From the NCBI GenBank assembly GCA_016218545.1, contig JACRDQ010000038.1, positions 66,986 to 130,985 of the forward strand: 64,000 bases of DNA, given 5' to 3'. Under the pieces are notes generated by a model, which was not told the origin of the DNA, made no database searches, and saw nothing but the letters and a program-made list of their open reading frames with translations. This DNA comes from Elusimicrobiota bacterium (GTDB lineage Bacteria > Elusimicrobiota > Elusimicrobia > UBA1565 > UBA9628). A program made the position numbers and the translations under genes. Below, in pieces: positions 6,166 through 28,541 of the stretch; the first letter of the stretch is position 1; each line of letters opens with the position of its first letter.

Positions 6166-6217
6166 CCGGGGTCGACGCTGAAAGATCATGACCTATAGAA
6201 AAGGAAGGGTGGATACC

Positions 6218-11373: not shown

Positions 11374-14300
11374 CTATCGGGAGGCTCCCACGGGGACGGC
11401 GGGGCTCGCGGATTCCAGCGGCGAGCCTGAATCGTTGTGAGGGGGCGCCCGGGCCGCGATGCCGCGGGGCTTGGGCTTGCGCTTGGGGGGCGCCGGCTTC
11501 CAGCCCTGGAGCCAGAGGCGCTGGAAGTAGACGGTGTAGCCCGCCAGGGTGGCGTCGTCGTCGAAGAAGTTGGCGTTCTCGAAGGAGTTGTTCTCGGCGT
11601 TGGGGGAGTAGTTGAAGGAGCCGGTCTCGAGGAACTTCCCGTCGACCATCATGAGCTTGTTGTGCATCTTCTCGAACATGGGGTCGCCGTCTTCCCCGCG
11701 CGGGCCCTGGATGAGGCGGGTGTCGAAGCCGTGCCAGGCGAACCAGTCGTCGATCTTGGAGACCTTGGACTGGGAGTAGTCCATCACGATGCGGATGGCG
11801 ACCTCGGGCCGGTTGTTCTTGACCTCGAGGAGGGCGTCCGCGATGGCCTGGGAATAGAAGCTGAACATCGCGATCTCGATGGAGACCTTGGCGGCCTTGA
11901 TGGCCCGGATGAGGGCGGCCTCGATCGCGCCCTGCGGGGAGAAGAGCTGGCGCGGGAAGGCCTCATTGCCCAGCTTGATGGGCTGGTCCGTGTCCTGGGG
12001 CGGGGGAGGGTACTCGGGCCTGCGCAAGTGCGTGCCCGAGGCCTCGCCGGCGTCCTGGGCCTCCTGCATGGACCGCAGGGTCCGGGCCAGGATCTCGTCG
12101 AGCTTGGCCATGTCGATGTCCTCGGCCAGGCCGCGCATGTACTGGAAATACTTCAGGTGGGCCGCCACCCGGCCCGCGTCCTTGGTGAAGATGAAGTTCT
12201 CGAAGTGGCTCTGCTCGGCCACGTCGGTCAGGTTGTAGGAGCCGAAGCCGACGAGCCCGTCGTCGACCACCATGATCTTGTTGTGCATGACCCCGCTGCG
12301 CTTGCCGCGCAGGATCTTGACGTCGAATCCCTCCTTGATGAGGGCCACGACCTGGGGCTTGGGCTTCCTGGGCTGGTCCTCGTGGTTGATGCCCGAGGTG
12401 TAGACATGGTTGCGGTCGAGCACGAGCTCGACCTTGACCCCGCGGGTCTTGGCCCGGCGCAGGGCCTCGAGGATGGACTCGGAGGTGAACTCGTAGAGGG
12501 CCAGGCGGATGGTCTTCTTGGCCGCGTCGATGGCCTTGATGATGTTGGGGGCGATGGGGTGGTCCGGCAGGAGCGCGTAGGAGGGCAGTTGGGCGCCGTT
12601 GAAATCCACGATGGGCGCGGCCGGGAGGTCCGGGAGGTCCGGCGCCGGCGGGGTGGGCTTGGGCGGCGGAGGGTTGAGGATGTCGTGCAGGAGCTCCTCA
12701 TCCGTGGGGAGGACGGGCAGCTGCGCGGGCTTGGCGAACGCCTGCGCGATCTTGAACATGTGCTCGAAGGCGAAGGAGAAGGCCGCGGCGTCGGTCTTGT
12801 CGTCGAGGAAGTGCGCGTTCTCGTAGTTGTCCACCGAGGCGCGCTTCGTCCAGTTGGCCGAGCCGGTCTCGACGATCCTGCCGTCGAGGATCATGAACTT
12901 GTGGTGCGTCTTCTCCGCCATGGGGAAGTCGCTGTCCGGGTTGGGGCCGGCCAGGGTCTTGACCGCGATGCCCTTGCTCGCCAGCCACTGGACGAACGGG
13001 CCGAAGTACTCCGAGGTGGACTGGCTCTCGTCCATCACCATGCGGACCTTCACCCCGCGCTCATGGGCGCGGACCAGGGCGTCCGTGATCCTGCGCGAGC
13101 GCAGGGCGAACATGGCCACGTCCACGGACTTCTTGGCCGCGTCCAAGCCCTTGACCACCGCGTCCTCGAACGCGGTGCCGTCGGGCATGAAGAGGATGGC
13201 GGGCAGGGCCGTGCCGTTCAAGTCCACGGTCCCGGCCTGGGTCCCGGCCGGGGGCTTGGCCGGGGTCTGCGGCCAGGAGTGCTCCCTGGCCTGGGCGAAG
13301 GGCACGCTGATGCCCAGGAGGTAGTCGTAGTACTCTTTGAGGGCCCAGACCCGGCTCTTCTGCGTGGTGAAGAGGGCGTTCTCGTAGTGGCTGTTCTCTG
13401 AGGTGAAGGAGTAGTTGTAGGAGCCGAACTGCGCGAGCCTGCCGTCGAAGATGGCGAACTTGTTGTGGTTGATGCCGTAGGCCGTCACCCCGCGCAGGAC
13501 GCGCAGGTCGTAGCCGTCGCGGATGAGGCTCCAGAGCTCGTTGGAGCGGCGCATGCGGTAGGCCGCGTCCGGGTCGTTCTTGGGGAAGACGTTGGAGTAA
13601 TCGACGATGAGTTGGATCTTGACCCCGCGGCGCTTGGCCCGGGCCAGGGCGTCCATGACGGCCCGGTTCTTGAACTCGTAGAGGGCCAGGCGGATGGTCT
13701 TGCGGGAGGCCTTGATGGCCTTGACGATCTCGTCTTCGACCGGGACATTGGGCCGCAGGGCCACGGAGGGGAACTCTTTGTTGTTGAAGGTGACCGTGCG
13801 GACCGGATAGTCCGCGCCGCCGCCGTCGTCCGAGTTGGAGGCAGGCTCCTCGGCCTTGGCCCTGCCCCTGCCCGCGGTCTCGTAGTCGAGCCCGGCGGAC
13901 TCGTAGTCGAGCCCTGCGGCCTCGTAGTCGATGGGGCTGGCGGCCAGGTCCGCGCCGGCGACCGCGCCTGCGGCCGCGCTCTCGGCGCCGAGCTTGAAAT
14001 CGAAGCTGCGGTCCGCGTACTCCTTCTGGCCCTGCAGGTCCGCGGCCTTGGGCTCGGCGAAGGGGACCTCGGCCGAGAGGCGCTCGAAGGCGCCGCGTCC
14101 CGCCTCCTCGGAGCCGGCCGCTTCCTGGGTCTTGACCGGGGTCTTGGAGACCGACAGGACGGAGGACGGCAGCGAGGTCTCGGGAGTCGCGAAGCTTCGG
14201 CCTGCCTCCGGTGCCGCGGGGAGGGCGGGCTGGGCCAGGACGGGCAGGCCCGGCTGCGCGGTGTCGGAGAGAGCGGGAGCGGCCACGCTGTTGACGCTCG

Positions 14301-14493
14301 GGGCGAGGAAGCCCGAGCCGCCGGTGAGCCGGTCGAGCCGCAGGTCCATGGCCGGGGCCGACATGGACACCGGGACCGCGGGGATGGCGTTGTTGCCGGA
14401 CGGCAGGCTCACGGCTCGGATCTGCTGGGCCAGCCCCGACGAGGGCGTGGTCCAGAGGATGATGGCGAGCGCCCAGAGCGCTGCGCGAGGCAT
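11374..14493 (-). CDS. Secreted PLD-superfamily protein with four HKD motifs (two complete catalytic units), 1039 aa
   Basis: Signal peptide MPRAALWALAIILWTTPSSGLAQQ, then a Pro/Ala/Leu-rich low-complexity leader. Four HxK(x4)D(x6)GSxN motifs are present: HNKFAIFDG..GSYNYS, HHKFMILDG..GSANWT, HNKIMVVDD..GSYNLT and HNKLMMVDG..GSFNYS. Confidence 0.8.
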   Translation of the reverse strand: MPRAALWALAIILWTTPSSGLAQQIRAVSLPSGNNAIPAVPVSMSAPAMDLRLDRLTGGSGFLAPSVNSVAAPALSDTAQPGLPVLAQPALPAAPEAGRSFATPETSLPSSVLSVSKTPVKTQEAAGSEEAGRGAFERLSAEVPFAEPKAADLQGQKEYADRSFDFKLGAESAAAGAVAGADLAASPIDYEAAGLDYESAGLDYETAGRGRAKAEEPASNSDDGGGADYPVRTVTFNNKEFPSVALRPNVPVEDEIVKAIKASRKTIRLALYEFKNRAVMDALARAKRRGVKIQLIVDYSNVFPKNDPDAAYRMRRSNELWSLIRDGYDLRVLRGVTAYGINHNKFAIFDGRLAQFGSYNYSFTSENSHYENALFTTQKSRVWALKEYYDYLLGISVPFAQAREHSWPQTPAKPPAGTQAGTVDLNGTALPAILFMPDGTAFEDAVVKGLDAAKKSVDVAMFALRSRRITDALVRAHERGVKVRMVMDESQSTSEYFGPFVQWLASKGIAVKTLAGPNPDSDFPMAEKTHHKFMILDGRIVETGSANWTKRASVDNYENAHFLDDKTDAAAFSFAFEHMFKIAQAFAKPAQLPVLPTDEELLHDILNPPPPKPTPPAPDLPDLPAAPIVDFNGAQLPSYALLPDHPIAPNIIKAIDAAKKTIRLALYEFTSESILEALRRAKTRGVKVELVLDRNHVYTSGINHEDQPRKPKPQVVALIKEGFDVKILRGKRSGVMHNKIMVVDDGLVGFGSYNLTDVAEQSHFENFIFTKDAGRVAAHLKYFQYMRGLAEDIDMAKLDEILARTLRSMQEAQDAGEASGTHLRRPEYPPPPQDTDQPIKLGNEAFPRQLFSPQGAIEAALIRAIKAAKVSIEIAMFSFYSQAIADALLEVKNNRPEVAIRIVMDYSQSKVSKIDDWFAWHGFDTRLIQGPRGEDGDPMFEKMHNKLMMVDGKFLETGSFNYSPNAENNSFENANFFDDDATLAGYTVYFQRLWLQGWKPAPPKRKPKPRGIAARAPPHNDSGSPLESASPAVPVGASR

Positions 14494-15286: not shown

Positions 15287-18200
15287 TTACAGCGGACCAG
15301 CGTCTTCAAAAGTGCCTTTTCGTATTTTGTCTTCCTGATCCAGGTAGTCCAACAAGGTCTTGTGAGTCTCTATCCAAGGATGGGCCACCCGCTGTTCGGA
15401 CAAATCTCTTCTGGCAGCGATGTTCGCGATCGTACTTTTCCGCAATCCAGCCCTGAGCAGGCGGCGTAGGAGTGGAGAGTTGTCGCGACCATGCACGTAT
15501 TCTTTTCTCAGACCCGCGAAGAATGCCTCATCCAAACAGCCGAAGACAGCATCGAAATATGCCTTCTTCAGGCCGCACCGGGCGCTCAAGATTTCCAATT
15601 GATTCCATATGTATTCTTCCGCTTTTTCCAATTCCAGCTGGCTCAGGCTTCCCGCGGCGATGCCTTGCAGGGCGGCATGGAGGGTCTGCTTGGCCTTTCT
15701 TTCCGAAGTCTGCCACTCCACGAGTTGTTGGATATGGCCGCTGATGGTATCGCTACGGAGGATCTGGGTCCGTTTGCGTGCATATTCAGGCAGCGGCTTG
15801 GCGTAAGAAAAAGCCAACGCCACGGTTCGGTCCACCCGCCTTCGATTCACTCCTGCCAGCCGCAGAAGCCCCAGATCGAACTCATGAAATGCGTCGTCCC
15901 CATAGGGGCCGATCTTGCCGCCCTTGACCTCGCCTCCCTGGGTGGCGTAGTGAACCAAAGCCGTGGTCAAGGAATGGGTCAGATAACTCGCCTGATTATT
16001 GTCGTTCTCCGCGCTGCCTCGATAGGCGCTTAGCAGAAGGTCGAACACCGCGGGGATGACGAGGATTTTTGAGCCGACGTTCCAAAACCTGAATCCCGCT
16101 TCTTTCAAGGCCCCAGGCATGATCTGTGGATCCAAGCCCAGGGCCCGCCACAAACGCGCCACATCCCTTTTTGTGAATGAGACTTCTCCTATCTTGCGTC
16201 TTAGGGGAACCATCCCCTTGAGCACCGTGTCCCGGCCGGCATAGGTCAACAGCAACTCCGTGTTCTGCGAAATGATCGCATTCTGATGATTCCACAAGAT
16301 GGCCCGCATGATGGTCGCGGGATCTGCCTGTTCCTGCTGGATCCGATCGTACTGCTCCGTTTGTAGCCAGTATCTGATGCGGATAAGATCCGGGGCGGCC
16401 TGATAGCGGAAGAACATCCCCGGATTGATGTCTCGGATGGAGCGGCTATACAGGTTGCGGGTATAGTCGTCCGCGCGCAGGATTTCGGCCATCGCCTCAT
16501 AGGGCAGGCGGCGGGTCAAGTCTTCGGGGAGGTTGAGATAGAAGTTCAGATGTTCGAAATCCAATTGTTCGTCGTTGGAGGAGATCGCCTTGGCGATAGG
16601 TGAGAGGCCGGCGGGCTGGTTCAGCATCCTGTGAGCTTGGCGGAAATCAGGCATCTGCATCAAGCCCTTGATCACATGATCCGACATGCTGCCGCTGACG
16701 CCCGCAGCCTTCATGGATTTGATCGCCGCACCCAGGAGCCGCGACAAGCCCGCGTGAAACCAGAAATCAGCTCGTTGGTCGGCATCGGGAGCGGCCGAAA
16801 GCATGTCCAAAAGGGAATCGGGGGAATCCCGCGGCAAGCCCGCCTTGAACAAAGAGGGACCTAGCTTGAGGAACGCAGCGACGGCCGTTGGAGGATCGTG
16901 ATGTTTCGCCAAATGAAAGACGAGGTAGATGCCGTCGCCGTACAAGCTGCTCCCCCATCGGGCCTTGGCCGAGATCAGGGTATGAAGGGCTGTGGCGCTG
17001 GCCGCGGCATCAGGACGTCGACTGAGCGAGACCAAGGCATCGGACATATGGGGGTCATGAGAGACTACACTCAAGGAAACCATGAGTTCGCGCAGGGCCG
17101 CAGCGTCAGACTTGGGATCAGGCCCGGCGGCCACGGACGAGAGCATGTCGATCGCGGTTTGTTGCGACACGTCGGTAGCGACCCGATACATGGCCGCTAA
17201 AGGCTCAGCGGCGCCGTCGTGAAGGAGTCGCCTCAAATCGATCTGAGGCTGGCCGGCCAATGCGCGCAGAGCCGCCCCTGTTTGGCCGTTATCGAGGCCG
17301 GCTTGTCTAAGGATGGCGGCGACTTGCCCCACGGCCTGGGTTGGGGCGATGTCGCCCAGAACCAGCGGGGCGCCGCCATCCGTGGGCATCATGTCGTTGA
17401 TTGCGGAATCAAGGAAGCGGCTGCTCGCAGCGTCCTCGTTGCCCGTACGGCGGGATTCCGTGACGCGAGCATCGAGCAGCCGGAGAGAATCTACGGCCAC
17501 AGGCGCGTCCGCAGCTTGCGCTTGCTCAGGCGGGACAACGGCTTGACGTCCGCCGCCAGCGTATGGTCTTAGGAGGGCGTAGAGCGTCAGGCTGAAGGCC
17601 AGCGGCAGGCTGACGGCCATGGCGGCGGGCCAGAGCACCAGGGGGCCGAAGACCAGCCCCGCTGCTGCGAGGAGGGCCCATCCGGACACGGGGTTGGCCG
17701 GCCGTTCCTTGCCGAGCATGCTCCTCAGGGACGCCGCCGCGGCGGCGAGCCCCACCGCGGCGATGCCCAGGGTCGCGGCCCTCCCCGCCGGGGCGAAGAG
17801 CAGGCCCGCCATGGCCATGGCGAACCACATGCCGTTGTAGAAGGCGTGGTGCGTGATGGAGCCCGCCAGCCCGTGCTTCTCGAAGACCCATGAGAGCATC
17901 AGGGAGCCCGCGAGCCTCAGGCCGAAGAGGAGGGGGTCGGAGGTCTCGTGCAGGGCCACGAAAACGAGCGAGCTCGCCAGGGCCGCGACCCCGAAGGCGC
18001 CCCGGCTCCAGAACTTCGAGACGACCTTCTTGAGGCCGCCCTGCAGGAACTGCCGGAACAGGAGCTCCTCGAGGACCGGGGCCATGACCGACACGGAGAA
18101 GAGGAGGCTGGCGATCTCGCTGATTCCCATGCCTGGGCCGAACACCGGGCCCTGGTAGTTCGAATGCGGGACGTAGCCCAGGGCGCCTGCGAGGGCCTTG

Positions 18201-18913
18201 GTGCCCATGATGAAGGCCACGGTCAGGAACGCGGTGACGTAGCCGACCTTGGCCGCCTTGGAGAACCCCTGGCCGCGGTGGAGGTCCTCGATGGGGTCTT
18301 TCTCGTTGCTCACGGCCGAGAAGAGGGGGCGGTCGAGTCCAGGTCCGGCCGCGCGCGCAGACGCCTGGCTGCCCTGGACCGGGACGCCGGGCTCGGCGAG
18401 TCCGGGGAGGACGGGCTGGCCGTCGAAAACCGCGGCTAGGCCGCCTGTCAAGGACTCCGACGGAAGGGCCTTGGCCCGTACAGGAAGGACCTCAACGGCC
18501 GCTTCCGCCAGGCCTTTCGCGATGCCTCTCTCGATGCCCGGGACCGGGCTTGCCAGGCCGAGCTGGGATGCCGGGCCAGGCAAGGCTGAAGGGAGTGCCT
18601 GAGGGAGGTCGGGCAGCGGCAGGAGCGGGGCCACGGGCAGGTCCGGTGCCGGGGCCTGGAGGAGCGTTCCGCCTGGCAGGTCCGGCCTGATGGCCGGGGC
18701 TGGGGGCAGGCCAGCCTGGACCTGGAAAGAGGACGGCTGGCCGGCCTGTCCGAGGTCGGCTCGGGCCGTGGTCCTGGGAAGGATGACGGGAAAGGCGGAG
18801 GACGCGGCTCCGGCCGCGGTCACGGCCCTGACCTGGGCCAGGACGGCCGGGGGAAGGACCAGGCCGTGCAGGAGAGCCGCGCATAGCAAGACGGCGGCGG
18901 CTCGCCGGATCAC
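15287..18913 (-). CDS. Giant fusion protein of 1208 aa. It has a signal peptide, an LP-rich leader, a CPBP (CAAX/Abi) intramembrane metalloprotease domain, and a C-terminal domain of about 750 aa with unknown function and anomalously low GC.
   Basis: The CPBP motifs are present: EELLFRQ (the EExxxR motif), FVALHE (the FxxxH motif) and ITHHAFYNG (the HxxxN motif), together with multiple TM helices. The C-terminal domain occupies coordinates 15287 to about 17540. Its GC is about 50-62% against about 70% in the flanks, as counted in 60-nt windows. It has no recognisable motifs. Confidence 0.7.
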   Translation of the reverse strand: MIRRAAAVLLCAALLHGLVLPPAVLAQVRAVTAAGAASSAFPVILPRTTARADLGQAGQPSSFQVQAGLPPAPAIRPDLPGGTLLQAPAPDLPVAPLLPLPDLPQALPSALPGPASQLGLASPVPGIERGIAKGLAEAAVEVLPVRAKALPSESLTGGLAAVFDGQPVLPGLAEPGVPVQGSQASARAAGPGLDRPLFSAVSNEKDPIEDLHRGQGFSKAAKVGYVTAFLTVAFIMGTKALAGALGYVPHSNYQGPVFGPGMGISEIASLLFSVSVMAPVLEELLFRQFLQGGLKKVVSKFWSRGAFGVAALASSLVFVALHETSDPLLFGLRLAGSLMLSWVFEKHGLAGSITHHAFYNGMWFAMAMAGLLFAPAGRAATLGIAAVGLAAAAASLRSMLGKERPANPVSGWALLAAAGLVFGPLVLWPAAMAVSLPLAFSLTLYALLRPYAGGGRQAVVPPEQAQAADAPVAVDSLRLLDARVTESRRTGNEDAASSRFLDSAINDMMPTDGGAPLVLGDIAPTQAVGQVAAILRQAGLDNGQTGAALRALAGQPQIDLRRLLHDGAAEPLAAMYRVATDVSQQTAIDMLSSVAAGPDPKSDAAALRELMVSLSVVSHDPHMSDALVSLSRRPDAAASATALHTLISAKARWGSSLYGDGIYLVFHLAKHHDPPTAVAAFLKLGPSLFKAGLPRDSPDSLLDMLSAAPDADQRADFWFHAGLSRLLGAAIKSMKAAGVSGSMSDHVIKGLMQMPDFRQAHRMLNQPAGLSPIAKAISSNDEQLDFEHLNFYLNLPEDLTRRLPYEAMAEILRADDYTRNLYSRSIRDINPGMFFRYQAAPDLIRIRYWLQTEQYDRIQQEQADPATIMRAILWNHQNAIISQNTELLLTYAGRDTVLKGMVPLRRKIGEVSFTKRDVARLWRALGLDPQIMPGALKEAGFRFWNVGSKILVIPAVFDLLLSAYRGSAENDNNQASYLTHSLTTALVHYATQGGEVKGGKIGPYGDDAFHEFDLGLLRLAGVNRRRVDRTVALAFSYAKPLPEYARKRTQILRSDTISGHIQQLVEWQTSERKAKQTLHAALQGIAAGSLSQLELEKAEEYIWNQLEILSARCGLKKAYFDAVFGCLDEAFFAGLRKEYVHGRDNSPLLRRLLRAGLRKSTIANIAARRDLSEQRVAHPWIETHKTLLDYLDQEDKIRKGTFEDAGPL

Positions 18914-18920
18914 GTTCAGG

Positions 18921-21900
18921 TCACTCCTTCGCGGCCTTCTCGACGGCGTTCTCAGGCAGTCCGGGCATGCGCTTGGGCGCGTTCCAGAAGGCCAGGGCCG
19001 CGATGCCGTAGGCGATGCCGATGGGCACCAGGAGCGCGGGGAAGGCCGTGGTCAGCATCCCGGCTCCGAGGGAGAGCAGGCCGTAGCCCATGGAGGTCGA
19101 GGTGTTGACGAAGGAGCCGGAGGTCCCGAAGACCTTGCCGAGGTCGGACTTCTTGGTGCTCGTCTGCATGTAGGTGTTGAAGGACACGATGGCAGGGCCG
19201 CTGAACATGCCGTAGATCAGCATGGTCAGGAAGAGCGCGGTCTGCACGCTCATGAAGGGGATGAGGCCCGGCATGGTCCAGACGAGGAAGGGCAGCCACA
19301 CGGCCAGGAGGCCCAGGCCGAGGAACTTGATCCAGCCCTTCTGGGTGATGTGGTTGGCGAGCCACATGAGCCCGGCTGCCGCGGCCACCGCGGCCGCTGC
19401 GGCGAGGATGCTGCCGGGCACCAGGCCCGTGTAGACCCAGGTGGCGGCCAGGGCGAGGACTCCGCCCTGGATGAGGCGCTGGGCCGGGAACTTGCCGATC
19501 AAGGGGATGCGGATGTCCGGCAGCTTGACCTGCGAGGAGTTGGCGATGAGGGTGCCGAAGAAGACCGCGCCGGTGAGCTTGCCCAGGAGCATGGCCTTGC
19601 CTGCCTGGCCCACCAGGGTCACGGCCATGAGGGGCAGGGCGAAGTTCTGGAACGGGTAGGTCACCGCGGCCTGGAGCGAGGAGAAGAGGATGGTCGAGAA
19701 CTGGCGCAGGGTCCAGCGCTTGCCCTCGGACGAGAGAGCCTTGGTCTGCTCGGCTCGCTTGGCCAGGACCGCTTCGAGCTCCGCGGCGCGGGCTTCCCAG
19801 CCTTGGGCCTTCTCCGCCTTCACGCGCTCGAGCTCGGCGCGGTCCACAAGGTCTGCCGCCGCGTTCTCCTTGAGGGTGAGCGCGAGCTCCTTCTCGCGCT
19901 CTGAGACCTCGCGGGTGTCGCCGCGCCGCACCGCGCGCACCGTGTCCGTGTTCCAGACCCAGTAGAAGAGGGCCAGGGCGATGGGGATGGGAGAGTGCAG
20001 GAAGGAATAGGCCGCGATCGAGGCTCCGAAGAGGAGGGCTTCCTTCCAGTATTTGCGGAGGAAATCCGGGATCAGGGCCTTGAGCGCGGGCTTGCCGCCC
20101 TGCTTGACCGAGTCGAGCCAGGCCTTGACCCGGGACTTAAGGGTCTGGGGGGTCCCGGCGGCCGCGTTCGTGGGCGGCGTGTCGTTGGGCATGGAGAACC
20201 AGAGGTAGGGGGCCAGGAGCAGGCCGTGCACCCCGGCGGAGATGAGGAAGGCGATCATCGGGTTCCACTTGTCGATGATGGAGCCGATGCCCAGGATCAG
20301 GCCCAGGATCGCCTGCATGGACACGTAGTGGACCGAGCCCAGAGCCATCACGGTGCCCTGGTGCTTGCCCGCCAGCCTCCTTATGTAGGCGTTCTCCGTG
20401 GTCATGATGGCGGAGAGCACCCAGCCGTTGGCGATGGAAGACAGCAGCAGGGTCCAGAAGTTGAGGATGCCGAAGTAGGCGAAGGCAGGCAGCATCAGGG
20501 TCAGGACCGCGCGCACCACCATGTTGATGACCATGGAGTTCCGGGCCGAGAGCTTGTCCGCGAGGTTGCCGTTCAAGGGGCCGGTGGCGATGGCGGCCAG
20601 GGGGCCGAGGGCCATGAGCACGCCGTAGACGGTCCAGCCCACGGCCGGGGCGGCGAGGAAGGGGTAGGCGATGGAGGTCAGGATGAAGCTCGCGATGGAG
20701 AAGGTGCGCGAGATGAAGAGCGCCTTGACCGCGCCTTTGTTGAAGTCCGAGACTGGAGCCGCGGCCGCGCCTTTGAGGATCTCGGTGGAGGCAGGGCCGC
20801 CCTCGGTCGGCCAGACGAAGGTGTTGTCGAGCCTGGGGTCCGCCTTGCCGCCCACGGAGATGGCGAGCGCGCCCTGGGCGGCCTTGAGCATGTTGCGGTC
20901 CGTCACGCGGGAGCCGAAGAACTGGTCGCCCACGATGAGCAGCTTGGAGACCGGGGTTTCCTTGCCGTTGAAGCGTCCCAGCCAGCCTGCGAGCTTGGAG
21001 AAGAGCTTGCCCCTGATCCCCATGCCGGCCAGGTCGCGCATCCTGCCGATGTAGCCCAGGTGGGTCCTCAGCCATTCGACTCCGATGGCCTTGTCGACCT
21101 TGGAGAGCGAGATGTAAGGAGGGAGGGTCGGGTCCTTGGCCATGCGGCCGATGACCTCGACGTCCACGCCCCGCGCCTTGAGCTCGGCCTGCATGAGCTC
21201 GGCCGCGGCCCTGACCTCGGCCTCGGCCGTCCCGACTGGAAGGGGCCGGAAGTAGCCGTCCTTGGAGAGCTCCTCCTCCCTGCCGTTGAAGATCACGCTG
21301 CCGTACTTCTCCTTCACGGCCTGGCCCGCGGCCTTGATGGCGTCGGTCTCCGAGGCCTGCCAGGAGACGGACACGTCGCGCACGAGGCTGGGCTCGGCCT
21401 TGGCGTCATAGAGGACGGCGCGGGTGCCTTTGGAGGAGACGACGCCCAGGACTCCCTTTTGCTCCGGCGTCATGCCGGATAAAGACTGGAGGATGGTGAC
21501 CTCCTTGGGGTTCTCGGAGGCGTCCGGCCGGTCCGTGAGGATGACGGGCTGGATGCCCGCGTCAGCCGCGGTCTTGAGGGCTTCTGCGGTCTCGGGCGCG
21601 ATGGGCTTGGTCCAGGGAGCCAGGGTGTCGTCGTAGTCGAAGATGGCCAGGGAGGGCTTGTTCTGGGAGAGCTTGGCCAAGATCTGCTGCGCGTGGCCGG
21701 GGCTTACGGGCCGCAGGCTCAGGATCACGCCCCGGCCGGCCAGGGCGCGGAGGGCCTGACGGTGGACCTCGTAGTCCGAGGCTCCGCCCCGGGGATTGGA
21801 GTCCGCGATGCGGCGCAGGGACGCTTCGGTCTCGGCGCCGGGCTGGGAAGCGATGGAGTCCACGGCCTTCTTGCGGTCGTTCTCCGCCTTGGCGGAGTCC

Positions 21901-22526
21901 ACGGCCACGGCCTCGAGCTCCGGGACCGAGACGGTCCGGGGTTGGCTCGCGGCCAGGGAGCCCTGGCTGGCGTCGGCAGGGGAGAAGACCGGGGCAGGGC
22001 CGGAGACGTCGCCCACGGCAGCGGTCTTGCCTGAGAAGAGGTCGGAGAGGACGGTCTGGCGCTCGCCCGCGTCCTTGGCTTGCGTGAGCTTCTCGACGCC
22101 CTGGTCGAGGACCTCGCGGGTCGAGGCAGGCAGGCCGTCCTGGGCCTGGGGCGCCGCGGTGAGGCCCATGACCGGGAGCGGCAGAGCGGGGACCTCGGCG
22201 AAAGGCGCGGCTACGGGGGCTGAGAACGGGACCGCGCTGTCCGGAGCGCCGGAAGGGAGGACCGAGCCGACGGAAGGGGTGACGGCAGGAGAGCCCAGGG
22301 TGGGCAGTCCAAGGCCGGAGGGGAGGCTGGGATTGAACTGCAGGGGGAGATTGCCGATCCGGGAGGGGACCACGCCGATGGGCACGGCCACAGGAGCCTT
22401 GCCCGTCTGTCCGGCGGAGATGGTCTGGCCGAAGGCGCGATAGCCCTCGAAGCCCGGAGACAAAGCGATGAGCGCGGCGCTGAGGATGCCGGCCGTGACC
22501 CGTTTCATGAATCCCCCTTGCGTCAT
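18921..22526 (-). CDS. Giant fusion protein of 1201 aa. It has a signal peptide, an LP-rich leader, a HAD-superfamily phosphatase domain, and a 12-TM MFS transporter domain carrying an internal coiled-coil insertion.
   Basis: HAD motif I is FDYDDTL and motif IV is IVGDQFFGSRVTD. Two blocks of 6 TM helices are present with MFS-like loops (LNGNLADKLSARNS..., ...FSGPAIVSFNTYMQT). GGGGGA RBS + ATG at 22526, with a TACAAT -10 box about 25 nt upstream. Confidence 0.65.
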   Translation of the reverse strand: MTQGGFMKRVTAGILSAALIALSPGFEGYRAFGQTISAGQTGKAPVAVPIGVVPSRIGNLPLQFNPSLPSGLGLPTLGSPAVTPSVGSVLPSGAPDSAVPFSAPVAAPFAEVPALPLPVMGLTAAPQAQDGLPASTREVLDQGVEKLTQAKDAGERQTVLSDLFSGKTAAVGDVSGPAPVFSPADASQGSLAASQPRTVSVPELEAVAVDSAKAENDRKKAVDSIASQPGAETEASLRRIADSNPRGGASDYEVHRQALRALAGRGVILSLRPVSPGHAQQILAKLSQNKPSLAIFDYDDTLAPWTKPIAPETAEALKTAADAGIQPVILTDRPDASENPKEVTILQSLSGMTPEQKGVLGVVSSKGTRAVLYDAKAEPSLVRDVSVSWQASETDAIKAAGQAVKEKYGSVIFNGREEELSKDGYFRPLPVGTAEAEVRAAAELMQAELKARGVDVEVIGRMAKDPTLPPYISLSKVDKAIGVEWLRTHLGYIGRMRDLAGMGIRGKLFSKLAGWLGRFNGKETPVSKLLIVGDQFFGSRVTDRNMLKAAQGALAISVGGKADPRLDNTFVWPTEGGPASTEILKGAAAAPVSDFNKGAVKALFISRTFSIASFILTSIAYPFLAAPAVGWTVYGVLMALGPLAAIATGPLNGNLADKLSARNSMVINMVVRAVLTLMLPAFAYFGILNFWTLLLSSIANGWVLSAIMTTENAYIRRLAGKHQGTVMALGSVHYVSMQAILGLILGIGSIIDKWNPMIAFLISAGVHGLLLAPYLWFSMPNDTPPTNAAAGTPQTLKSRVKAWLDSVKQGGKPALKALIPDFLRKYWKEALLFGASIAAYSFLHSPIPIALALFYWVWNTDTVRAVRRGDTREVSEREKELALTLKENAAADLVDRAELERVKAEKAQGWEARAAELEAVLAKRAEQTKALSSEGKRWTLRQFSTILFSSLQAAVTYPFQNFALPLMAVTLVGQAGKAMLLGKLTGAVFFGTLIANSSQVKLPDIRIPLIGKFPAQRLIQGGVLALAATWVYTGLVPGSILAAAAAVAAAAGLMWLANHITQKGWIKFLGLGLLAVWLPFLVWTMPGLIPFMSVQTALFLTMLIYGMFSGPAIVSFNTYMQTSTKKSDLGKVFGTSGSFVNTSTSMGYGLLSLGAGMLTTAFPALLVPIGIAYGIAALAFWNAPKRMPGLPENAVEKAAKE

Positions 22527-22620: not shown

Positions 22621-25600
22621 CTACTTGGGTAGCTGCGCTGCCGCGTAGGCTGCCGCGGCTCGGACGGAGGGAGACGGGTCGGTCGTGGAGAGCTTGGACA
22701 GGACTCCTCTGAACCGCTTCTTGCTCTCCGAGAGCGCGCCTTGCACGGCGAACATCGCGGCGCAGCCCGCTCCCCGGACTTCGGGAGCGCGGTCTTTCAG
22801 GCAACGGGCAAGGAGCGCTACGGTCTCCGGGTCCCAGGAAAGGGCTGAGGCTTTGCAGGCCGCGGAACGCACGCGGCGCTCCGGAGACGAGAGCGCGGAG
22901 GCCACGGCTTGCAAGGCTCCAGGGCCCATGCGGCCAAGGCCGCTGGCAGCAGCGTCCCTCCTCTTGGCGTCCTTGGCCTTGAGATGGGAGGTCAGGAAAG
23001 AGGAGTCCTCGGGCCTGCCCACGGCTCCAAGGGAGGCCAGGCCTGCGTCGGCCACGTCCGGGTCCGGGTCCGCGGAAACGACCTTCAAAAGCTCGGCTGC
23101 CCGGTCTCGGAGCCGCCTTGCGGACTCGAGCTCGGCCTTCAGGCCTGAGGAGCGCTCCGGCTGGGCTTCGAGCAGGTCCAGGAACAGGGTCAGCGCTTCC
23201 TTGGGAAGGGGCTCGTTGGGGCCTGGGAAGCGGTGGACCAGGAGGCCGCGCTCGTCCGCGGTGAGCTGGCCCGCGAGCGACAGGGCGGACATCACGTCCG
23301 CGGCCCTCTTCCAGCCCATGCGCTTGATGAGCTCTTCGGCGGCGTCTGAGGAGACCGCGACCTCGAAGAAGCGGAGCCTGCCCGGCTCATCCCCCTGCTC
23401 CTGGCTGAAGAGGTGGCCCAGGGCTCCGGCCGCTTCCCTGCGCACGCGCCAATCCTCGTCCTTGAGCGCGGCCTCCAGCATAGGAAGAGCGTCTTGCGCC
23501 TTGGCGTACCTGGCGCTCTGGAGGATGAGGCTCCGGAGGGTGCCGCCGGTCTTGTCGAAGCTCCCCTTCGCCCAATCCAGGACCTGGGGACCGAAGCCCG
23601 CGAGCAGGACCCTCAGCCAGAGGTACTCGTCGAAGCGCTCCGCTGACAGGGCGGCCTCGAGGTGCGCAAGGTCCTGATCAGGGGTGCGGAAGAGCTCGGC
23701 TAAGGCCATCCTCGGGACGCCGCTCTCGAGGCTGAACGAGGAGGTCACGTGGAGGAGCCCGGCCACGCGCTCCGCTCCGGTTTTCTGGAGCGCGGCTTCG
23801 AACATGCGGCTGAGTTCCGCTCTCTCTTTCTCCACCGCTGCTGCGTGGTCTATGGCCGGCCAGTCCGCTGAGGCCAGGGTGAGCTTGGGGTCCAGGATGA
23901 GCCCGGACCTGGACACGACCGCGCCCCAGGGGCTCAGGGCCAGGCCGTGCGCCCGGGTCTCGGCAGGGAGCGCGGAGAGGCCCAGCCTGTTGTCCTTGCC
24001 CTCGACCGAGGCCAAGCCGTAGCCTGGAGCAGCCCGCTTGTGGAAGCCTGTGCCGAACTCGGGCAGGAGGAGCTTGTTGCGGTCTCCGGTGACCGCGGCC
24101 AGGCCGTGGCCGTTGGCGTCTCCCCGTCCCGTGCCCCAGTCCGCGCGGGCGGTGTTGTCGTCGCCGTGGAGCTCCCAGAAGCCCGCGCCGTAGTCCCAGC
24201 CGAACGCCGGTCCCACGCCCCAATTGACGAGAGCGTTCGAGCTGCCTGCCACGCTCAGGACCCCGACCGCCGCGTGGATGCCCGAGCCCTGAGCGTAGCG
24301 CCTGGCCTTGAGGCGGTTCCGGTCTCCGCGGACGAAGAGCGCTCCGATGCCGTGCCAGTAGCCGCTGCCCTGGCCGAAATAGTTGGCGACGATGCTCCCG
24401 TCCTCGGTCGCCACATGGGCCAGCCCGGCGCCCCCGCCTGCGAAGGCTCGGCGGCCGTAAGCCGCGCCTTGGCACATGCTGAGCGCTGCTTGAGCCTCCC
24501 TCGGGTCCGGATAGCGCAGTCCGCACTGGAGGTCCGCCCTCGCGCCTTGGTGGCGGAAGACTCCCGCGCCCTGGGTGAACCCGTAGCCCTGGGCTGAGAG
24601 GTCCGCCTCGAACGACGCGTCCTCTCCTTTGGACCAGAGCACCCCTGCTCCGAAGGCTCCGGCGGCCTGGCTGAAGCGGCCGCCTCGGAGCACGTTCGCT
24701 TTCCCCTCGATGGTGAGCCCGCCCACGCCGAAGAGCCCGGAGCCCAGGGAGAAGTCTCCGCCCGAGAGCTTCTTGGCGCCCGCGGGGTTGGGAAGGAAGA
24801 GCAGGCCCACGCCGAAGATGCCGCTGCCTCCGGTGGGTCCTCCGCTTGGGTCCTGGACCGTCACGTCCTCAGCCAGGTCGATGACCACCTTGACCTCGCC
24901 CTCTCCTGCGGCGGCGACCGGGCCCTGGTAGACGCTCTTCCTGCCGAGGTGGATGAGGAGAGCCACGCCCTTGAGCTCGCCTGCGGTGAAGGTGCGCTCT
25001 CCGGGGCCGACCAGGAGGGCCTCTCCGAAGGGGAGCTTCCAGCGCTTCTCCGCCACGCTGGACCTGGCCGCCGCCTTGCGCAGGGCAGGCAGGTGGGAGC
25101 CGGACACCGCGCAGAGCAGGAAGCTCCCGGCCTCGAGCAGCTGGCTGAGGCGGAACCGCGCCATGGCGGCGTAGACCGCGGGCTCGGAGCGCGGCCCGTT
25201 CTCGCTGGTGACCGCGGCCTTGACCTCCTGGAGGGCGGCGAGCCTCTCGGGTCCTGTCAGGGAGTCCGCCGCCTCCAGCACCGCGGCGCGCGCGATGTCC
25301 ATGTCCCAGAGGATGCGCGCGATGGCCACGCGGAGGTCCGGGGCCAGGCCCAGGCTCTCCGGCGCCATGGAGTGGCGGAACTCCCTGGCCAGGGTCCCGG
25401 CCGGGGCGCCCAGGACCTGCCGGCCCACGCCGAGGAGTCCGCAGGCGTCCTCGGAGCGGCGCAAGCCCTCCTTCCAGCGGCCGGCCGAGGCAGGCAGGGA
25501 GAGCGGGTCCTTGAGGAGCCCTTCGGCTTCGGGCAGGGCCATGGCCGTGTCCCAGCGGGAAGGACGGAGGTCGAGGTCCGAAGCCGAGGCTTCCGCGGCC

Positions 25601-25713
25601 TTGGCCGCGGCCGAGAGCGCTGCGGTGACCGGGCGGGGCTTGGGCCGGGCGGTCTCGCCGCAGAGGGCGAGGGAGGGGAGGAGGAGCGTCAGGCAGAGAG
25701 CGGCCCGGCGCAT
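22621..25713 (-). CDS. Large lipoprotein of about 1030 aa with a central Gly-rich repeat region (beta-helix-like) and C-terminal HEAT/PBS-lyase-type repeats
   Basis: The internal Met at 25713 gives a lipobox LLLPSLALCGE. The longer ORF from 26022 is an Arg-rich extension that overlaps tolB and is not used. Repeats of the form xGxGxFG / YAQGSG are present. The C-terminus shows ...PEVRGAGCAAMFA..., ...PSVRAAAAYAAAQL (HEAT-like). The gene starts 11 nt after the tolB stop. Confidence 0.55.
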   Translation of the reverse strand: MRRAALCLTLLLPSLALCGETARPKPRPVTAALSAAAKAAEASASDLDLRPSRWDTAMALPEAEGLLKDPLSLPASAGRWKEGLRRSEDACGLLGVGRQVLGAPAGTLAREFRHSMAPESLGLAPDLRVAIARILWDMDIARAAVLEAADSLTGPERLAALQEVKAAVTSENGPRSEPAVYAAMARFRLSQLLEAGSFLLCAVSGSHLPALRKAAARSSVAEKRWKLPFGEALLVGPGERTFTAGELKGVALLIHLGRKSVYQGPVAAAGEGEVKVVIDLAEDVTVQDPSGGPTGGSGIFGVGLLFLPNPAGAKKLSGGDFSLGSGLFGVGGLTIEGKANVLRGGRFSQAAGAFGAGVLWSKGEDASFEADLSAQGYGFTQGAGVFRHQGARADLQCGLRYPDPREAQAALSMCQGAAYGRRAFAGGGAGLAHVATEDGSIVANYFGQGSGYWHGIGALFVRGDRNRLKARRYAQGSGIHAAVGVLSVAGSSNALVNWGVGPAFGWDYGAGFWELHGDDNTARADWGTGRGDANGHGLAAVTGDRNKLLLPEFGTGFHKRAAPGYGLASVEGKDNRLGLSALPAETRAHGLALSPWGAVVSRSGLILDPKLTLASADWPAIDHAAAVEKERAELSRMFEAALQKTGAERVAGLLHVTSSFSLESGVPRMALAELFRTPDQDLAHLEAALSAERFDEYLWLRVLLAGFGPQVLDWAKGSFDKTGGTLRSLILQSARYAKAQDALPMLEAALKDEDWRVRREAAGALGHLFSQEQGDEPGRLRFFEVAVSSDAAEELIKRMGWKRAADVMSALSLAGQLTADERGLLVHRFPGPNEPLPKEALTLFLDLLEAQPERSSGLKAELESARRLRDRAAELLKVVSADPDPDVADAGLASLGAVGRPEDSSFLTSHLKAKDAKRRDAAASGLGRMGPGALQAVASALSSPERRVRSAACKASALSWDPETVALLARCLKDRAPEVRGAGCAAMFAVQGALSESKKRFRGVLSKLSTTDPSPSVRAAAAYAAAQLPK

Positions 25714-25724
25714 GGGACGCCCCG

Positions 25725-27023
25725 CTAGCGCGACCAGTCCGGGGTCGAGCTGGCTCCCGGAGCGTCGAGGAGCCGGTGCGGGGCCGAGCCGTCCGCGTCC
25801 ATGACGTAGACCTCGGGCCTTCCGCCGCGCGTGGTCACGAAGGTCAGGAAGCGGCCGTCGGGCGACCAGGAGGGGTCCTCGTTGGACCCTTCGCCGTGGG
25901 TGAGCTGGCGGACCTGGTTGCCGGTGACGTCCACGAGGAAGATGTCGATGGGGTCCTTGGGCCGGCTGCGGCCGGCGAAGGCGATCCACTCGCCGGTCGG
26001 AGACCACGAGGGGGAGTCGCACCAGTTCATGCGCGTGAGCTTCTTGGCGCGCTGGGTGGTCATGTCCAGGATGTAGACCTGCGGGTTGCCGGAGCGGTCG
26101 GACACGAAGGCGACTTGGCTTGCGTCCGGGGAGAAGGTCGGCGAGGTGTCCACCCCGGTGTGGTTGGTGAGCCTCGTGATGGAGCCGTCCGCGATGCCTT
26201 TGACGTAGATGTTCGGATGCTTCTGGCGCGAGAGGGTCATGAGCATCTGGTTGCCGTCGGGGGAGAAGCCGCCCGCCACGTTGAGGCCCTGCTCGTTGGA
26301 AAGGACCCGGGACTTGCCGGTCGCCAGGTCCAGCAGGAAGAGGTCGGGGTTGCCGTCCCTGTAGGAGGTGTAAGCCACGGTCTTGCGGTCAGGGCTCAGG
26401 CGCGGCAGCAGCGAGATGGCGCGGTGGTTCGTCAGGCGGCGGAGGTTGGCGCCGTCGTAGTCGGCCAGGTAGATCTCCTTGTTCCCGGTCTGACGGTTGG
26501 CGAAGGCGAGCTGGGAGTGCGCGATGCCGATCTTGCCGGTCAGGGCTTTGACGAGGTCGTCGGAGACGCGGTGCGCCAGGGAACGCCAGAACTGGGCGTC
26601 CTGCTGGTAGTAGCGGTCGAAGACCTGCTCTCCGGAGTTGAGGTCGGTCAGGGAGACCGTGAGGCTCACCTTCGGAGCCGCGCTGCCGGCTCCGGGGGCC
26701 GCGGCCTTGGCCGTCAGGATCCACCCGGCGCCGCGCAGCTTCCACTCCCGGCTGACCGCGGAGACCTGGCCGCCGTCGGGCGTGGGGCCGTCCTCGACGA
26801 TCCTGAAGTAGCGCGAGAACATGAGGTCCGCGCGGATGACCTCGCGCGTCTGCTGGGCCATGGCAGCGTCCTGGACCGAGCCCGGGTCATTGGCCGTGAA
26901 GGGGGGCAGCCCCAGGGGCAGGGCCTGGCCCGCCGAGGAGCCGGCGAGGCTGATGTAGACGTCCGCGGCCGAGGCCGGGACCGCGAGCAGGCCGGCGCAG
27001 AGCAGGGAGGCCAGGCCCGTCAT
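25725..27023 (-). CDS. tolB: TolB periplasmic beta-propeller protein
   Basis: The N-terminal TolB domain is followed by repeated SPDG blades (FSPDGNQML, FSPDASQVAFVSDRSGNPQVYI, WSPDGRFLTFVTTRGGRPEVYVMDADGS). Confidence 0.85.
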   Translation of the reverse strand: MTGLASLLCAGLLAVPASAADVYISLAGSSAGQALPLGLPPFTANDPGSVQDAAMAQQTREVIRADLMFSRYFRIVEDGPTPDGGQVSAVSREWKLRGAGWILTAKAAAPGAGSAAPKVSLTVSLTDLNSGEQVFDRYYQQDAQFWRSLAHRVSDDLVKALTGKIGIAHSQLAFANRQTGNKEIYLADYDGANLRRLTNHRAISLLPRLSPDRKTVAYTSYRDGNPDLFLLDLATGKSRVLSNEQGLNVAGGFSPDGNQMLMTLSRQKHPNIYVKGIADGSITRLTNHTGVDTSPTFSPDASQVAFVSDRSGNPQVYILDMTTQRAKKLTRMNWCDSPSWSPTGEWIAFAGRSRPKDPIDIFLVDVTGNQVRQLTHGEGSNEDPSWSPDGRFLTFVTTRGGRPEVYVMDADGSAPHRLLDAPGASSTPDWSR

Positions 27024-27835
27024 GAGCGGCCCTTGCGCTGGGGCCGCTCGGCGGGAAGCTTGCGCAGGTGCTCGGCCGCGGCCTTGGCCTCGGGGCTCTT
27101 GGGGAAGTCCAGGGGGATGGATTCGAGGTACTGCTTGGCCTCCGAGATGTTCCTCCTGAGCCGGATGAGGCAGAGCGCGTACATGAGGCGCGTGGACGGC
27201 GTCATCTTGCTGTTGGGGAAGCGCTCCAGGGCGGTCGCGAACTGCCGGCCCGCGGCCTCCCAGCGGCCCATCCCGAAGTAGGCCTCGCCGAGGTTGTAGA
27301 CCGCGACGTCGATGAGCGAGCCCGTGGGAAAGCGCGCCGCGTACTCCTCGAAGCCCTTGGCGGCGAGCTCGTAGTCCTTCTTGGCGAGCCGCACCTCGGC
27401 GGTGAGGAAGAGCTCGGTGGGGGAGGTGCCGGCGCCGACCTGGGCCACCTTGCGCTCCATCTTCTGCATGTCCTTCTTCTGCTGCTCGACGTCCTCCTTG
27501 AGGGACTCGCCCAGGGCGGAGACCTTCGTGGAGATGCCGGTGCCGACGTTGGCGACGCCGGAGCTCACGTCGTCGATCTTGGAGCCGAGGCGCTCCATGT
27601 CGCCGCGCAGGTCCTTGACGGTCTCGGTGAAGACGCCGAGGTCGGTGTGGAGCTGCTTCATCTCGACGATCATGTCGGCCTGGTTGGTCTGCATGGAGCC
27701 GATCGTCTTCTTGAGCTCGAGGACCTGGAACTTGAGCTCGTCGGCCTGGTTCTCAAGCGAGATCACGTCCCGCTGGGTCGCGACGCATCCGGTGAGGAAG
27801 GAGACCGCGGCCGCCAGGAAGAGGGCGCGCCTCAT
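27020..27835 (-). CDS. cpoB: CpoB/YbgF Tol-Pal-associated TPR/coiled-coil protein
   Basis: Begins at the internal Met MRRALFLAAAVSFLTGC. A coiled-coil region is followed by TPR repeats (AVYNLGEAYFGMGRWEAAGRQF). The 472-aa ORF in the track is a fusion artefact with the pal frame. Confidence 0.7.
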   Translation of the reverse strand: MRRALFLAAAVSFLTGCVATQRDVISLENQADELKFQVLELKKTIGSMQTNQADMIVEMKQLHTDLGVFTETVKDLRGDMERLGSKIDDVSSGVANVGTGISTKVSALGESLKEDVEQQKKDMQKMERKVAQVGAGTSPTELFLTAEVRLAKKDYELAAKGFEEYAARFPTGSLIDVAVYNLGEAYFGMGRWEAAGRQFATALERFPNSKMTPSTRLMYALCLIRLRRNISEAKQYLESIPLDFPKSPEAKAAAEHLRKLPAERPQRKGRS

Positions 27836-28389: not shown

Positions 28390-28541
28390 ATGAGTCGACC
28401 TCCAGGAAATTGCGCCTTACGCGCGAATTAGGCGACATATGATAGCAAAATCTTGGAAGAGCCTTGGGTCCTTGGACCTAGGCCCGGCTGGGCCCTCCGT
28501 CGCTGTCCGCCGGGGATCTCCGCGGCTAGACTTATAGATAG

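Follow-up and report, generated by a model that had tools for sequence, protein, structure and literature searches.

Several described systems pair a phosphatase with a membrane transporter. In Escherichia coli, the HAD-IIB phosphatase YigL and the MFS sugar efflux pump SetA form a phosphosugar-stress pair, whereas e(P4) of Haemophilus influenzae or AphA act in the periplasm as acid phosphatases of the HAD superfamily and supply an importer, PnuC. In the endoplasmic reticulum, G6PT1 (SLC37A4) and glucose-6-phosphatase provide a further example of transporter–phosphatase coupling. Direct fusion of an MFS protein to an enzyme is known from LplT-Aas, and LplT, LtaA, MFSD2A and SPNS2 are MFS proteins that flip or extract lipids. 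Here we analyzed a stretch of 64,000 nucleotides from an Elusimicrobiota bacterium (GenBank assembly GCA_016218545.1, contig JACRDQ010000038.1, positions 66,986 to 130,985 of the forward strand; the window in the following), in which one open reading frame (18921..22526, minus strand) encodes a predicted HAD phosphatase joined to an MFS transporter, termed HAD-MFS. Both folds and enzyme–transporter coupling are known already, whereas the architecture itself is new. The reading we prefer, to which we assign a probability of roughly 40%, is that of a cytoplasm-facing phosphatase at the inner mouth of the transporter, where dephosphorylation would be coupled to transport of the product.

The catalytic part of the protein comprises a HAD phosphatase core with a C2B-type cap (residues 291–590; 20757..21656, on the minus strand as all features of this gene). 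The motifs named in the original prediction, DYDDTL and GDQFFGSRVTD, are present at residues 297–302 and 533–543. Motif I, D297-Y-D299-D-T301-L (21621..21638), contains the nucleophile and the general acid/base and aligns to motif I of BT4131; motif IV, G533-D534-QFFGSRVT-D543, is located at 20898..20930. Alignment of 22 homologues with 31–82% identity to the window protein, leaving out the partial P0003 (90%), showed D297, D299 and T301 to be invariant, together with T331 and the adjoining D332 and R333 (LTDRP), K479 (DKxxG), and G533, D534 and D543. Motif IV is unusual in that its second aspartate comes 9 positions after the first, with 8 residues in between, where a distance of 4–5 is usual; this corresponds to a 5-residue insertion relative to GDxxND. 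The invariance of all catalytic residues rules out an inactive or decayed HAD domain, the motifs are probably catalytically competent, and from the sequence we predict an active, Mg-dependent phosphomonoesterase.

The AlphaFold2 (AF2) model of the HAD domain (predicted local distance difference test score, pLDDT, 93) shows a Rossmannoid α/β core, with a cap inserted between motifs II and III in the β-α-β-α-β-β order of the C2B type; the AF2 model of residues 190–1201 has a pLDDT of 86.7 and a predicted template-modeling score (pTM) of 0.73. Among 12 family members scanned, no Pfam or NCBIfam HAD model reached its cut-off, and only motifs I–II were matched. PF08282 (Hydrolase_3) scored 17.8–20.1 bits against a cut-off of 20.9, with the window protein at 17.8 over residues 295–335 only, TIGR01484 scored 15–16 against 41.8, and TIGR00099 18–20 against 137. 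Likewise, a PDB sequence search with the family profile retrieved only motifs I–II of BT4131/YidA, at E-values of 0.02–1. As these hits are sub-threshold and confined to motifs I–II, the HAD assignment rests on the fold and the motifs. The modelled domain is of the IIB structural type and lies outside every curated family; the proposed HAD-IIB-like character was thus borne out by the Rossmannoid core, the C2B cap and the motifs, but by none of the curated HAD-IIB profiles.

The HAD core is preceded by a five-helix, HEAT-like subdomain (residues 198–290; 21657..21935) with an invariant Y252-E253-x-H255-R256 motif, which forms the amino-terminal part of what is described below as a mobile cassette. 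HEAT_2 was weakly matched in 2 of the 12 scanned members, and direct comparison revealed no similarity of this subdomain to the HEAT protein encoded upstream in the window. In a Foldseek search with the whole model the larger ISN1 nucleotidases rank first, which is probably accounted for by the extra five-helix subdomain; trehalose-6-phosphate phosphatases, phosphomannomutases and MPGP are among the further structural matches of the HAD domain.

The carboxy-terminal part of the protein carries the transporter. The Pfam profile MFS_1 matched residues 603–1135 with 46.2 bits (gathering cut-off 33.4), and in the AF2 model a 12-helix MFS core made up of two six-helix bundles is present. Structural matches with Foldseek TM-scores of 0.6–0.74 included POT transporters, NupG, DgoT and G6PT1, a ranking that favours no one subfamily. 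The best NCBIfam MFS match, TIGR00900 (DHA3 H+ antiporters), reached 29.2 bits against a cut-off of 319.6, and the PDB sequence search with the family profile returned no MFS chain at E ≤ 1. The amino-terminal MFS domain with transmembrane helices TM1–TM6 covers residues 597–778 (20193..20738). It is followed by a central region (residues 779–944; 19695..20192) comprising an amphipathic helix, a short hydrophobic hairpin (830–858) and a two-helix coiled coil, and by the carboxy-terminal MFS domain with extra helices (residues 945–1184; 18975..19694), which contains eight hydrophobic helices. Hydropathy and model together yielded 16 hydrophobic helices, i.e. six at 603–778, two in the hairpin (830–843 and 847–858) and eight at 945–1184; we did not base this count on AF2 alone, where the helix assignments fuse TM1/TM2 and TM4/TM5. 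The last two helices are counted as extra because the MFS_1 profile ends near residue 1135. A complete 12-helix permease, as originally proposed, is thus present as the core of a protein with more helices.

The coiled coil that had been noted between the two halves of the transporter is a hairpin of two AF2 helices of about 30 residues each (876–905 and 910–939, within residues 876–939; 19710..19901). The surrounding loop (859–944) contains 18 Lys/Arg and 17 Asp/Glu residues. The central region varies in length within the family, and some members have no coiled coil. A motif-A-like sequence, G653-NLA-D657-K-L-S660-A-R662, lies in loop 2–3. G653 is invariant, S660, A661 and R662 are kept in at least 90% of the sequences, and D657 is lost in one subclade. 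Across 48 MFS domains of this subtype the polar residues S610, R672, S705, Q738, D752, K977, S1138, N1141, S1145 and Y1148 are kept, and no membrane-embedded acidic residue is conserved. The TM1/TM7 pair of phosphate-binding arginines of the organophosphate antiporters (GlpT/UhpT/G6PT) is not conserved either.

We then considered on which side of the membrane the phosphatase resides. In the AF2 model the last HAD helix ends at residue 588 and TM1 starts at residue 597, leaving a linker of only 8–9 residues. Because an even number of membrane helices separates TM1 from the coiled coil, the model places HAD and coiled coil on the same face of the transporter. In 22 family members, the loops on this face contain on average about 38 Lys and Arg residues, those on the opposite face 0.8 in total. 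The HAD-side means are 2.1 for loop 2–3, 2.5 for loop 4–5, 9.3 after TM6, 13.8 for the coiled-coil loop, 4.2, 0.9 and 2.2 for the three later loops, and 3.2 for the carboxy-terminal tail, and the loops of the opposite face are only 2–6 residues long. TM1 to TM3, beginning with residue 603, match MFS_1 from its first position, with motif A falling into loop 2–3. The position of motif A is invariable among known MFS proteins, and we know of no inverted MFS protein. Paralogs without the HAD domain share an N-in signature, with FNKK before TM1. The positive-inside rule and the position of motif A would assign both HAD and coiled coil to the canonical cytoplasmic face, and the Lys/Arg-rich face is thus taken as the cytoplasmic one. 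The periplasmic HAD domain of the original prediction is not supported by these data, and the dephosphorylation-linked uptake from the periplasm suggested along with it would need an inverted MFS transporter.

The amino terminus of the protein conveys a different message. Residues 7–33 (22428..22508) form a Sec-type signal-like peptide, with MKR followed by the uncharged h-region VTAGILSAALIALSPGF and by A-F-G before Q34; in the terms of a signal peptidase I substrate it reads MKR / VTAGILSAALIAL / SPG / A31-F-G33 before Q34. The family leader consists of MKR, an uncharged core of 13–17 residues, Pro-Gly, A-x-A/G and then Gln. This pattern was found in 152 of 180 full-length family proteins, with a mean of 2.6 Lys/Arg before the h-region; the residue after the AxA-like site is Gln in 103 and Ala in 49 members. 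A Pro/Ala/Val/Leu-rich low-complexity spacer follows (residues 34–197, about 165 residues; 21936..22427), the first 100 residues of which are almost uncharged. In the family the spacer measures 150–280 residues and is nearly uncharged. It carries one conserved polar helix ending in L160-x3-F164-x-G166, within the conserved motif TVLSDLFSGKTA (residues 157–168; 22023..22058; family consensus LxxLFTGxR), in which L160 and F164 are kept in at least 90% of the aligned sequences and G166 is invariant. An LxxLFTGxR-like match is present in 127 of the 180 family proteins. Hydropathy analysis showed no conserved second hydrophobic helix between the leader and HAD or TM1 in the family. The most hydrophobic 19-residue windows reach 0.9–1.8 on the Kyte–Doolittle scale, are Pro-rich and do not keep their position. 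A hidden transmembrane segment reconciling the two topologies was thus not found, and one of the two signals, leader or transporter, must be misread.

Taken at face value, the leader points to a periplasmic enzyme. The leader would be a true signal, the exported HAD domain would cleave impermeant organophosphates, and the fused transporter would import the product, for example from nucleotides set free by the PD-(D/E)XK-like proteins encoded nearby, in a manner similar to e(P4)/AphA with PnuC or UshA with NupG. Besides the canonical n/h/c layout of the leader with AxA and Gln and the uncharged early mature region, the following points favour this alternative: soluble M28 and PLD proteins carry this leader too, tier-2 relatives consist of leader and HAD with or without one carboxy-terminal transmembrane helix, the neighbours in deeper clades are leader-bearing hydrolases (M28, M48-MFS, M50-S8 and PD-(D/E)XK-like proteins), and both ISN1 5'-nucleotidases and NupG/YegT nucleoside permeases are among the structural matches. 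These nucleotidase and permease matches are, however, no better than those to many other HAD and MFS proteins. More severely, TM1 would have to be N-out in an inverted, non-canonical MFS protein, with motif A and about 38 Lys/Arg in the periplasm and the cytoplasmic loops left without any. The same contradiction exists in the CPBP, M48-MFS and P0083 proteins, and inversion of four families is unlikely. In HAD-MFS, HAD-less MFS, CPBP, M48-MFS and P0083 the first transmembrane helix after the amino-terminal module has Lys/Arg on its N side, and the Lys/Arg residues of the CPBP protein split 14 to 1 between the two faces. Leaderless soluble HAD homologues exist as well (P0109, P0115). Inverting several unrelated families seems less likely than an amino-terminal helix that does not export, and on this ground the transporter evidence outweighs the leader; weighting the two roughly 60:30, we find it more likely that HAD faces the cell interior than the periplasm. 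Export of the phosphatase is accordingly the less probable case, if by no means an implausible one.

Placing the phosphatase in the cytoplasm and coupling it to the transporter nevertheless has to contend with several observations. A textbook cleavable Sec signal conserved in most of the family predicts export of HAD at face value, and it is followed by an export-typical uncharged Pro/Ala spacer, with no second transmembrane helix before HAD. This leader also precedes an M28 peptidase and a set of four PLDc domains (4xPLDc), both usually extracytoplasmic, in polypeptides with no other transmembrane helix. The tier-2 relatives resemble the classical type I layout of leader, HAD and one carboxy-terminal helix. 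Furthermore, the conserved polar residues within the membrane are identical in HAD-bearing and HAD-less paralogs, so the transported substrate need not be the HAD product, and there is no stable operon partner that would indicate the substrate.

In the arrangement we favour, HAD-MFS would be a single polytopic inner-membrane protein in which the HAD phosphatase, held by its 8–9-residue linker to TM1, docks on the cytoplasmic side at the inner mouth of the transporter, on the same face as the coiled coil. A small phosphometabolite, such as a sugar phosphate or a nucleotide-like compound, would be dephosphorylated by HAD and the uncharged product handed straight to the MFS part for export; in a less likely variant, an imported organophosphate would be hydrolysed on arrival. 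That catalysis and transport share a substrate, as well as the direction of transport and the substrate class, is what we infer.

The helical subdomain and HAD together form a cassette of about 395 residues that sits just before the conserved FNK preceding TM1. Searching with the MFS domain only yielded 114 Elusimicrobia proteins, many of them about 770 residues long and consisting of leader, spacer and MFS without HAD. With 58–63% identity, these HAD-less paralogs are closer to the MFS domain of the window protein than are the HAD-bearing proteins from other lineages, at 45–50% or 34–37%, and one HAD-bearing and one HAD-less paralog occur about 10 kb apart on one contig. P0023 (L004:14002-18414; 1470 residues), encoded directly after the HAD-MFS gene of P0011, carries two tandem helical–HAD cassettes before the MFS part. 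Judging from the sequences, the helical–HAD unit is an optional cassette within one MFS subfamily. A second HAD-MFS copy or a HAD-less paralog was not found within the window.

This modularity raises the alternative that leader, spacer and MFS form the basic unit, to which the cassette adds regulation, as a sensor, plug or gate together with the coiled coil, or which it simply uses as a membrane anchor, in the way of the M48 protease of a sister fusion. No relatives of the window MFS domain are closer than the HAD-less paralogs, in which the conserved polar residues are retained, an M48 peptidase occupies the same position before an MFS domain in L003, and the cassette can be duplicated (P0023) or degenerate, as in the F5 proteins that lost motif I. 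Full invariance of the catalytic residues, on the other hand, argues for turnover over mere binding, and the short, well-predicted linker together with the pTM of 0.73 suggests a fixed juxtaposition with the transport path. We regard such an uncoupled role as improbable.

The same leader–spacer module heads HAD-MFS, HAD-less MFS, CPBP, 4xPLDc, M28, PD-(D/E)XK-like, M48-MFS and M50-S8 proteins, and the LxxLFTGxR-like motif is present in the CPBP, M48-MFS and M50-S8 proteins, too. In the window it lies at 22023-22508 (HAD-MFS), 18200-18913 (CPBP) and 13700-14493 (4xPLDc), always on the minus strand, and in other loci at L003:15097-15800 and L020:18435-19200. The leader type had initially been described as shared with the CPBP neighbour, and it is indeed found in that sequence. 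Leader, Pro/Ala spacer and LxxLFTG may constitute an Elusimicrobiota-specific amino-terminal module of many membrane and envelope enzymes, followed in every polytopic carrier by a first transmembrane helix that looks N-in. Should the module truly export what lies downstream, HAD-MFS would be the first MFS protein of inverted orientation; its phosphatase and coiled coil would then be periplasmic, and it could act as a dephosphorylate-and-import machine on that side, possibly for nucleotides from the nuclease-like proteins encoded nearby. Otherwise, the module would represent a new kind of amino-terminal membrane tether mimicking a signal peptide. Taken as a whole, we consider this reading rather improbable.

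To delineate the family we performed a word-indexed search for close homologues among 5.8 billion proteins, which returned 23 relatives of the same length with 34–90% identity, every named one from an Elusimicrobia metagenome-assembled genome (MAG). A HMMER search with a profile of the helical and HAD regions against 1.84 billion representative proteins (50% identity clusters) gave 173 proteins at E ≤ 0.001, about 60 of which match the whole profile and are mostly 1000–1350 residues long. Scanning one genome per GTDB species identified 25 loci, all from Elusimicrobiota or unclassified MAGs, and the named members of the more distant tier likewise belong to Elusimicrobiota. By these searches, the HAD-MFS fusion is rare and limited to this phylum. 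Database annotation of the family reads only "MFS transporter" or "hypothetical protein".

The integrity of the gene is evident from the same comparisons. Internal stops are absent from the open reading frame, whose coordinates include the stop codon and which gives 1201 residues from the first ATG; the G+C content of the window is 63–73%. The in-frame fusion inferred originally from this single sequence is matched by the same uninterrupted architecture in close homologues, protein clusters and genome loci. As this architecture is conserved across independent MAGs from many studies, a frameshift, an assembly chimera or two separate genes were ruled out. An artefact, be it a misassembly or frameshift that merged two genes or a HAD domain in decay, is therefore extremely improbable; nothing was found in its favour, and the invariant catalytic motifs and confident AF2 models stand against it together with the recurring architecture. 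The start codon is probably Met7 (nt 22508) instead of the first ATG, because AAGGGGGA precedes this second ATG by 6 nt and the homologues align with their amino termini to the MKR at Met7. The length of 1201 residues thus applies to the open reading frame, while the protein would have about 1195.

Downstream, 7 nt (18914..18920, minus strand) separate the TGA stop of HAD-MFS from the GTG start (18913) of the CPBP gene, the distance that had been reported before, and a GAAGGAG Shine-Dalgarno sequence lies 10 nt upstream of this GTG, overlapping the last codons of HAD-MFS. The two genes are probably translationally coupled, as far as this arrangement indicates. The CPBP gene (15287-18913, minus strand) encodes a protein of 1208 residues with leader, spacer and an 8-helix CPBP/Rce1-like protease core (PF02517, residues 268–362) containing the EExxxR, FxxxH and HxxxN motifs, followed by a carboxy-terminal domain of about 750 residues without family match. 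In L001, L005 and L009, the closest relatives that were compared, the gene is missing from the corresponding place.

Upstream, the window and its closest relatives share the order (OmpA) – TPR/YfiO-like – TolB – HEAT-repeat protein with signal peptide – HAD-MFS, and OmpA – TPR – TolB – HEAT – HAD-MFS is kept in L001. The HEAT-repeat protein (about 1030 residues, signal peptide, carboxy-terminal HEAT repeats; 22621-25716, minus strand) is encoded between tolB and HAD-MFS; its open reading frame is listed with a start too far upstream, and translation probably begins at the Met of MRRAALCLTLLL. The TolB and TPR/YfiO-like (CpoB-like) genes follow upstream of it at 25725-27023 and 27020-28438 (both minus strand). 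Two PLD genes flank this group: one encodes four PLDc_2 domains in 1039 residues with leader and spacer and no other transmembrane helix (11374-14493, minus strand), the other a cardiolipin-synthase-like protein of 437 residues with two PLDc_2 domains (28542-29855, plus strand). Large PLDc genes are also located near HAD-MFS in L005 and L009. Further away, the window contains an outer-membrane β-barrel of the MtrB/PioB type (822 residues; PF11854, 384 bits; 6188-8656, plus strand), a family linked to extracellular electron transfer.

Such a neighbourhood would fit a role in which HAD-MFS and the adjacent genes of the PLD/cardiolipin-synthase-like and Tol-Pal types jointly serve lipid homeostasis of the envelope. 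The HAD domain would dephosphorylate a lipid intermediate or head group (for example phosphatidylglycerophosphate, or a lyso- or glycolipid phosphate), and the MFS part would flip or extract the lipid. The two flanking PLD-type genes, the TolB and TPR/YfiO-like genes upstream, the gene order with PLDc nearby that is kept in the closest relatives and the absence of a conserved membrane-embedded acidic residue are all consistent with this. The synteny does not, however, extend beyond a single shallow clade with identities of at least 67%, the neighbours of other clades differ, and lipid transporters rank no higher than non-lipid MFS proteins among the structural matches. Moreover, Cof-type C2B-capped HAD enzymes typically act on soluble metabolites, and the HAD lipid phosphatases PgpC, Gep4 and the lipins belong to other HAD subfamilies. 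The phospholipid head group put forward in the original prediction as a possible substrate thus finds weak neighbourhood support within a single clade, and we deem a lipid substrate quite improbable, marginally more so than the uncoupled role.

No universal operon partner emerged from the loci compared, as the three clade-specific contexts differ. Deeper clades show the order M28 – degenerate-HAD protein – PD-(D/E)XK-like – HAD-MFS – small ORFs (open reading frames) – M48-MFS – M50-S8. The degenerate HAD modules belong to the leader-bearing F5 family (L022:4235-6535, L023:192-4514; hhalign probability 96% to the cassette), which keeps LTDRPD but lost the DxDxT of motif I. The leader-bearing F2 family (L022:6537-9356, L023:4515-7229) has a weak PD-(D/E)XK match (PDDEXK_1). 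The M48-MFS fusion (L003:15097-20025; also in L018, L020 and L022) comprises about 1640 residues with leader and spacer, about 10 transmembrane helices, an M48 domain (HExxH) and a carboxy-terminal MFS domain. Located two genes downstream of HAD-MFS, it precedes a double-protease fusion, M50-S8, resulting in a cluster of giant membrane-enzyme fusions. In the third clade, an MscS-type channel gene is located one or two genes downstream of HAD-MFS (L002:13745-14797, L004:19433-20473, L010:9076-10134, and L011), and in L010, L011 and L013 a protein of 818 residues with two ATP-grasp ligase modules is also encoded downstream. Outside these contexts, P0109 (L032:4001-5044), a leaderless soluble cassette homologue of 347 residues from an AT-rich organism, adjoins a small hydrophobic ORF, and a PDDEXK_1 protein (46 bits; L032:5414-7036) beside it represents a second, independent HAD/PD-(D/E)XK adjacency. 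The recurring PD-(D/E)XK link is the only hint, and a weak one, to nucleotide-related substrates.

Neither a HAD-MFS fusion nor its family was described in the full-text literature searched, and the same holds for the divergent HAD family, for the MFS subtype distinguished by a coiled coil and additional helices, and for the amino-terminal module. The fusion would link metabolism and membrane transport compactly, by substrate channelling, in an almost uncultured phylum; model bacteria use separate proteins for this task, such as YigL and SetA or e(P4) and PnuC. Since members with and without the HAD cassette coexist in one MFS subfamily, the HAD-bearing and HAD-less paralog pairs provide a ready natural experiment on what the fusion adds. 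The most intriguing aspect is the topology conflict: a textbook signal peptide opposed to a textbook N-in transporter, recurring in unrelated polytopic enzymes, poses a testable puzzle of membrane-protein biogenesis.

Compared with the Cof-type HAD-IIB sugar phosphatases (for example BT4131 of Bacteroides thetaiotaomicron, YidA, YbiV, SupH and YigL of E. coli, and PfHAD1), the window HAD shares the Rossmannoid core, the DxDxT, Thr and Lys motifs, an acidic if differently spaced motif IV and the C2B-type cap between motifs II and III, and motifs I–II align by profile hidden Markov model. Identity is only 13–23%, however, and the curated models were missed. The window protein furthermore adds the five-helix amino-terminal subdomain with the invariant YEVHR, the 5-residue insertion in motif IV and the covalent fusion to a transporter, and its clade adds a helical hairpin after motif III. 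Within the MFS, the POT/PepT family has the HA–HB helices inserted between the bundles, whereas the hairpin of the window protein is short (13 + 12 hydrophobic residues) and followed by a coiled coil of about 65 residues, and two further helices are added after TM12. The organophosphate:phosphate antiporters differ by their TM1/TM7 arginine pair. The HAD-less Elusimicrobiota paralogs (for example P0169 and P0175) have the same leader, spacer motif, MFS subtype, central coiled coil and extra helices and lack the cassette of about 395 residues. In LplT-Aas the fusion is arranged differently, the enzyme of the window protein being amino-terminal and a phosphatase. In e(P4)/AphA with PnuC and in G6PT1 with glucose-6-phosphatase, a phosphatase and a transporter are likewise coupled on the same metabolite, but the partners are separate. 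While G6PT1 is a structural match of the window MFS (TM-score 0.74), e(P4) and AphA, as 'DDDD' enzymes of class C/B, lack a C2B cap and glucose-6-phosphatase is a PAP2 enzyme, all unlike the window HAD. By analogy, the closest functional counterpart is the pair of YigL and SetA, two separate and separately regulated E. coli proteins; a specific sequence relationship of the window protein to either was not found.

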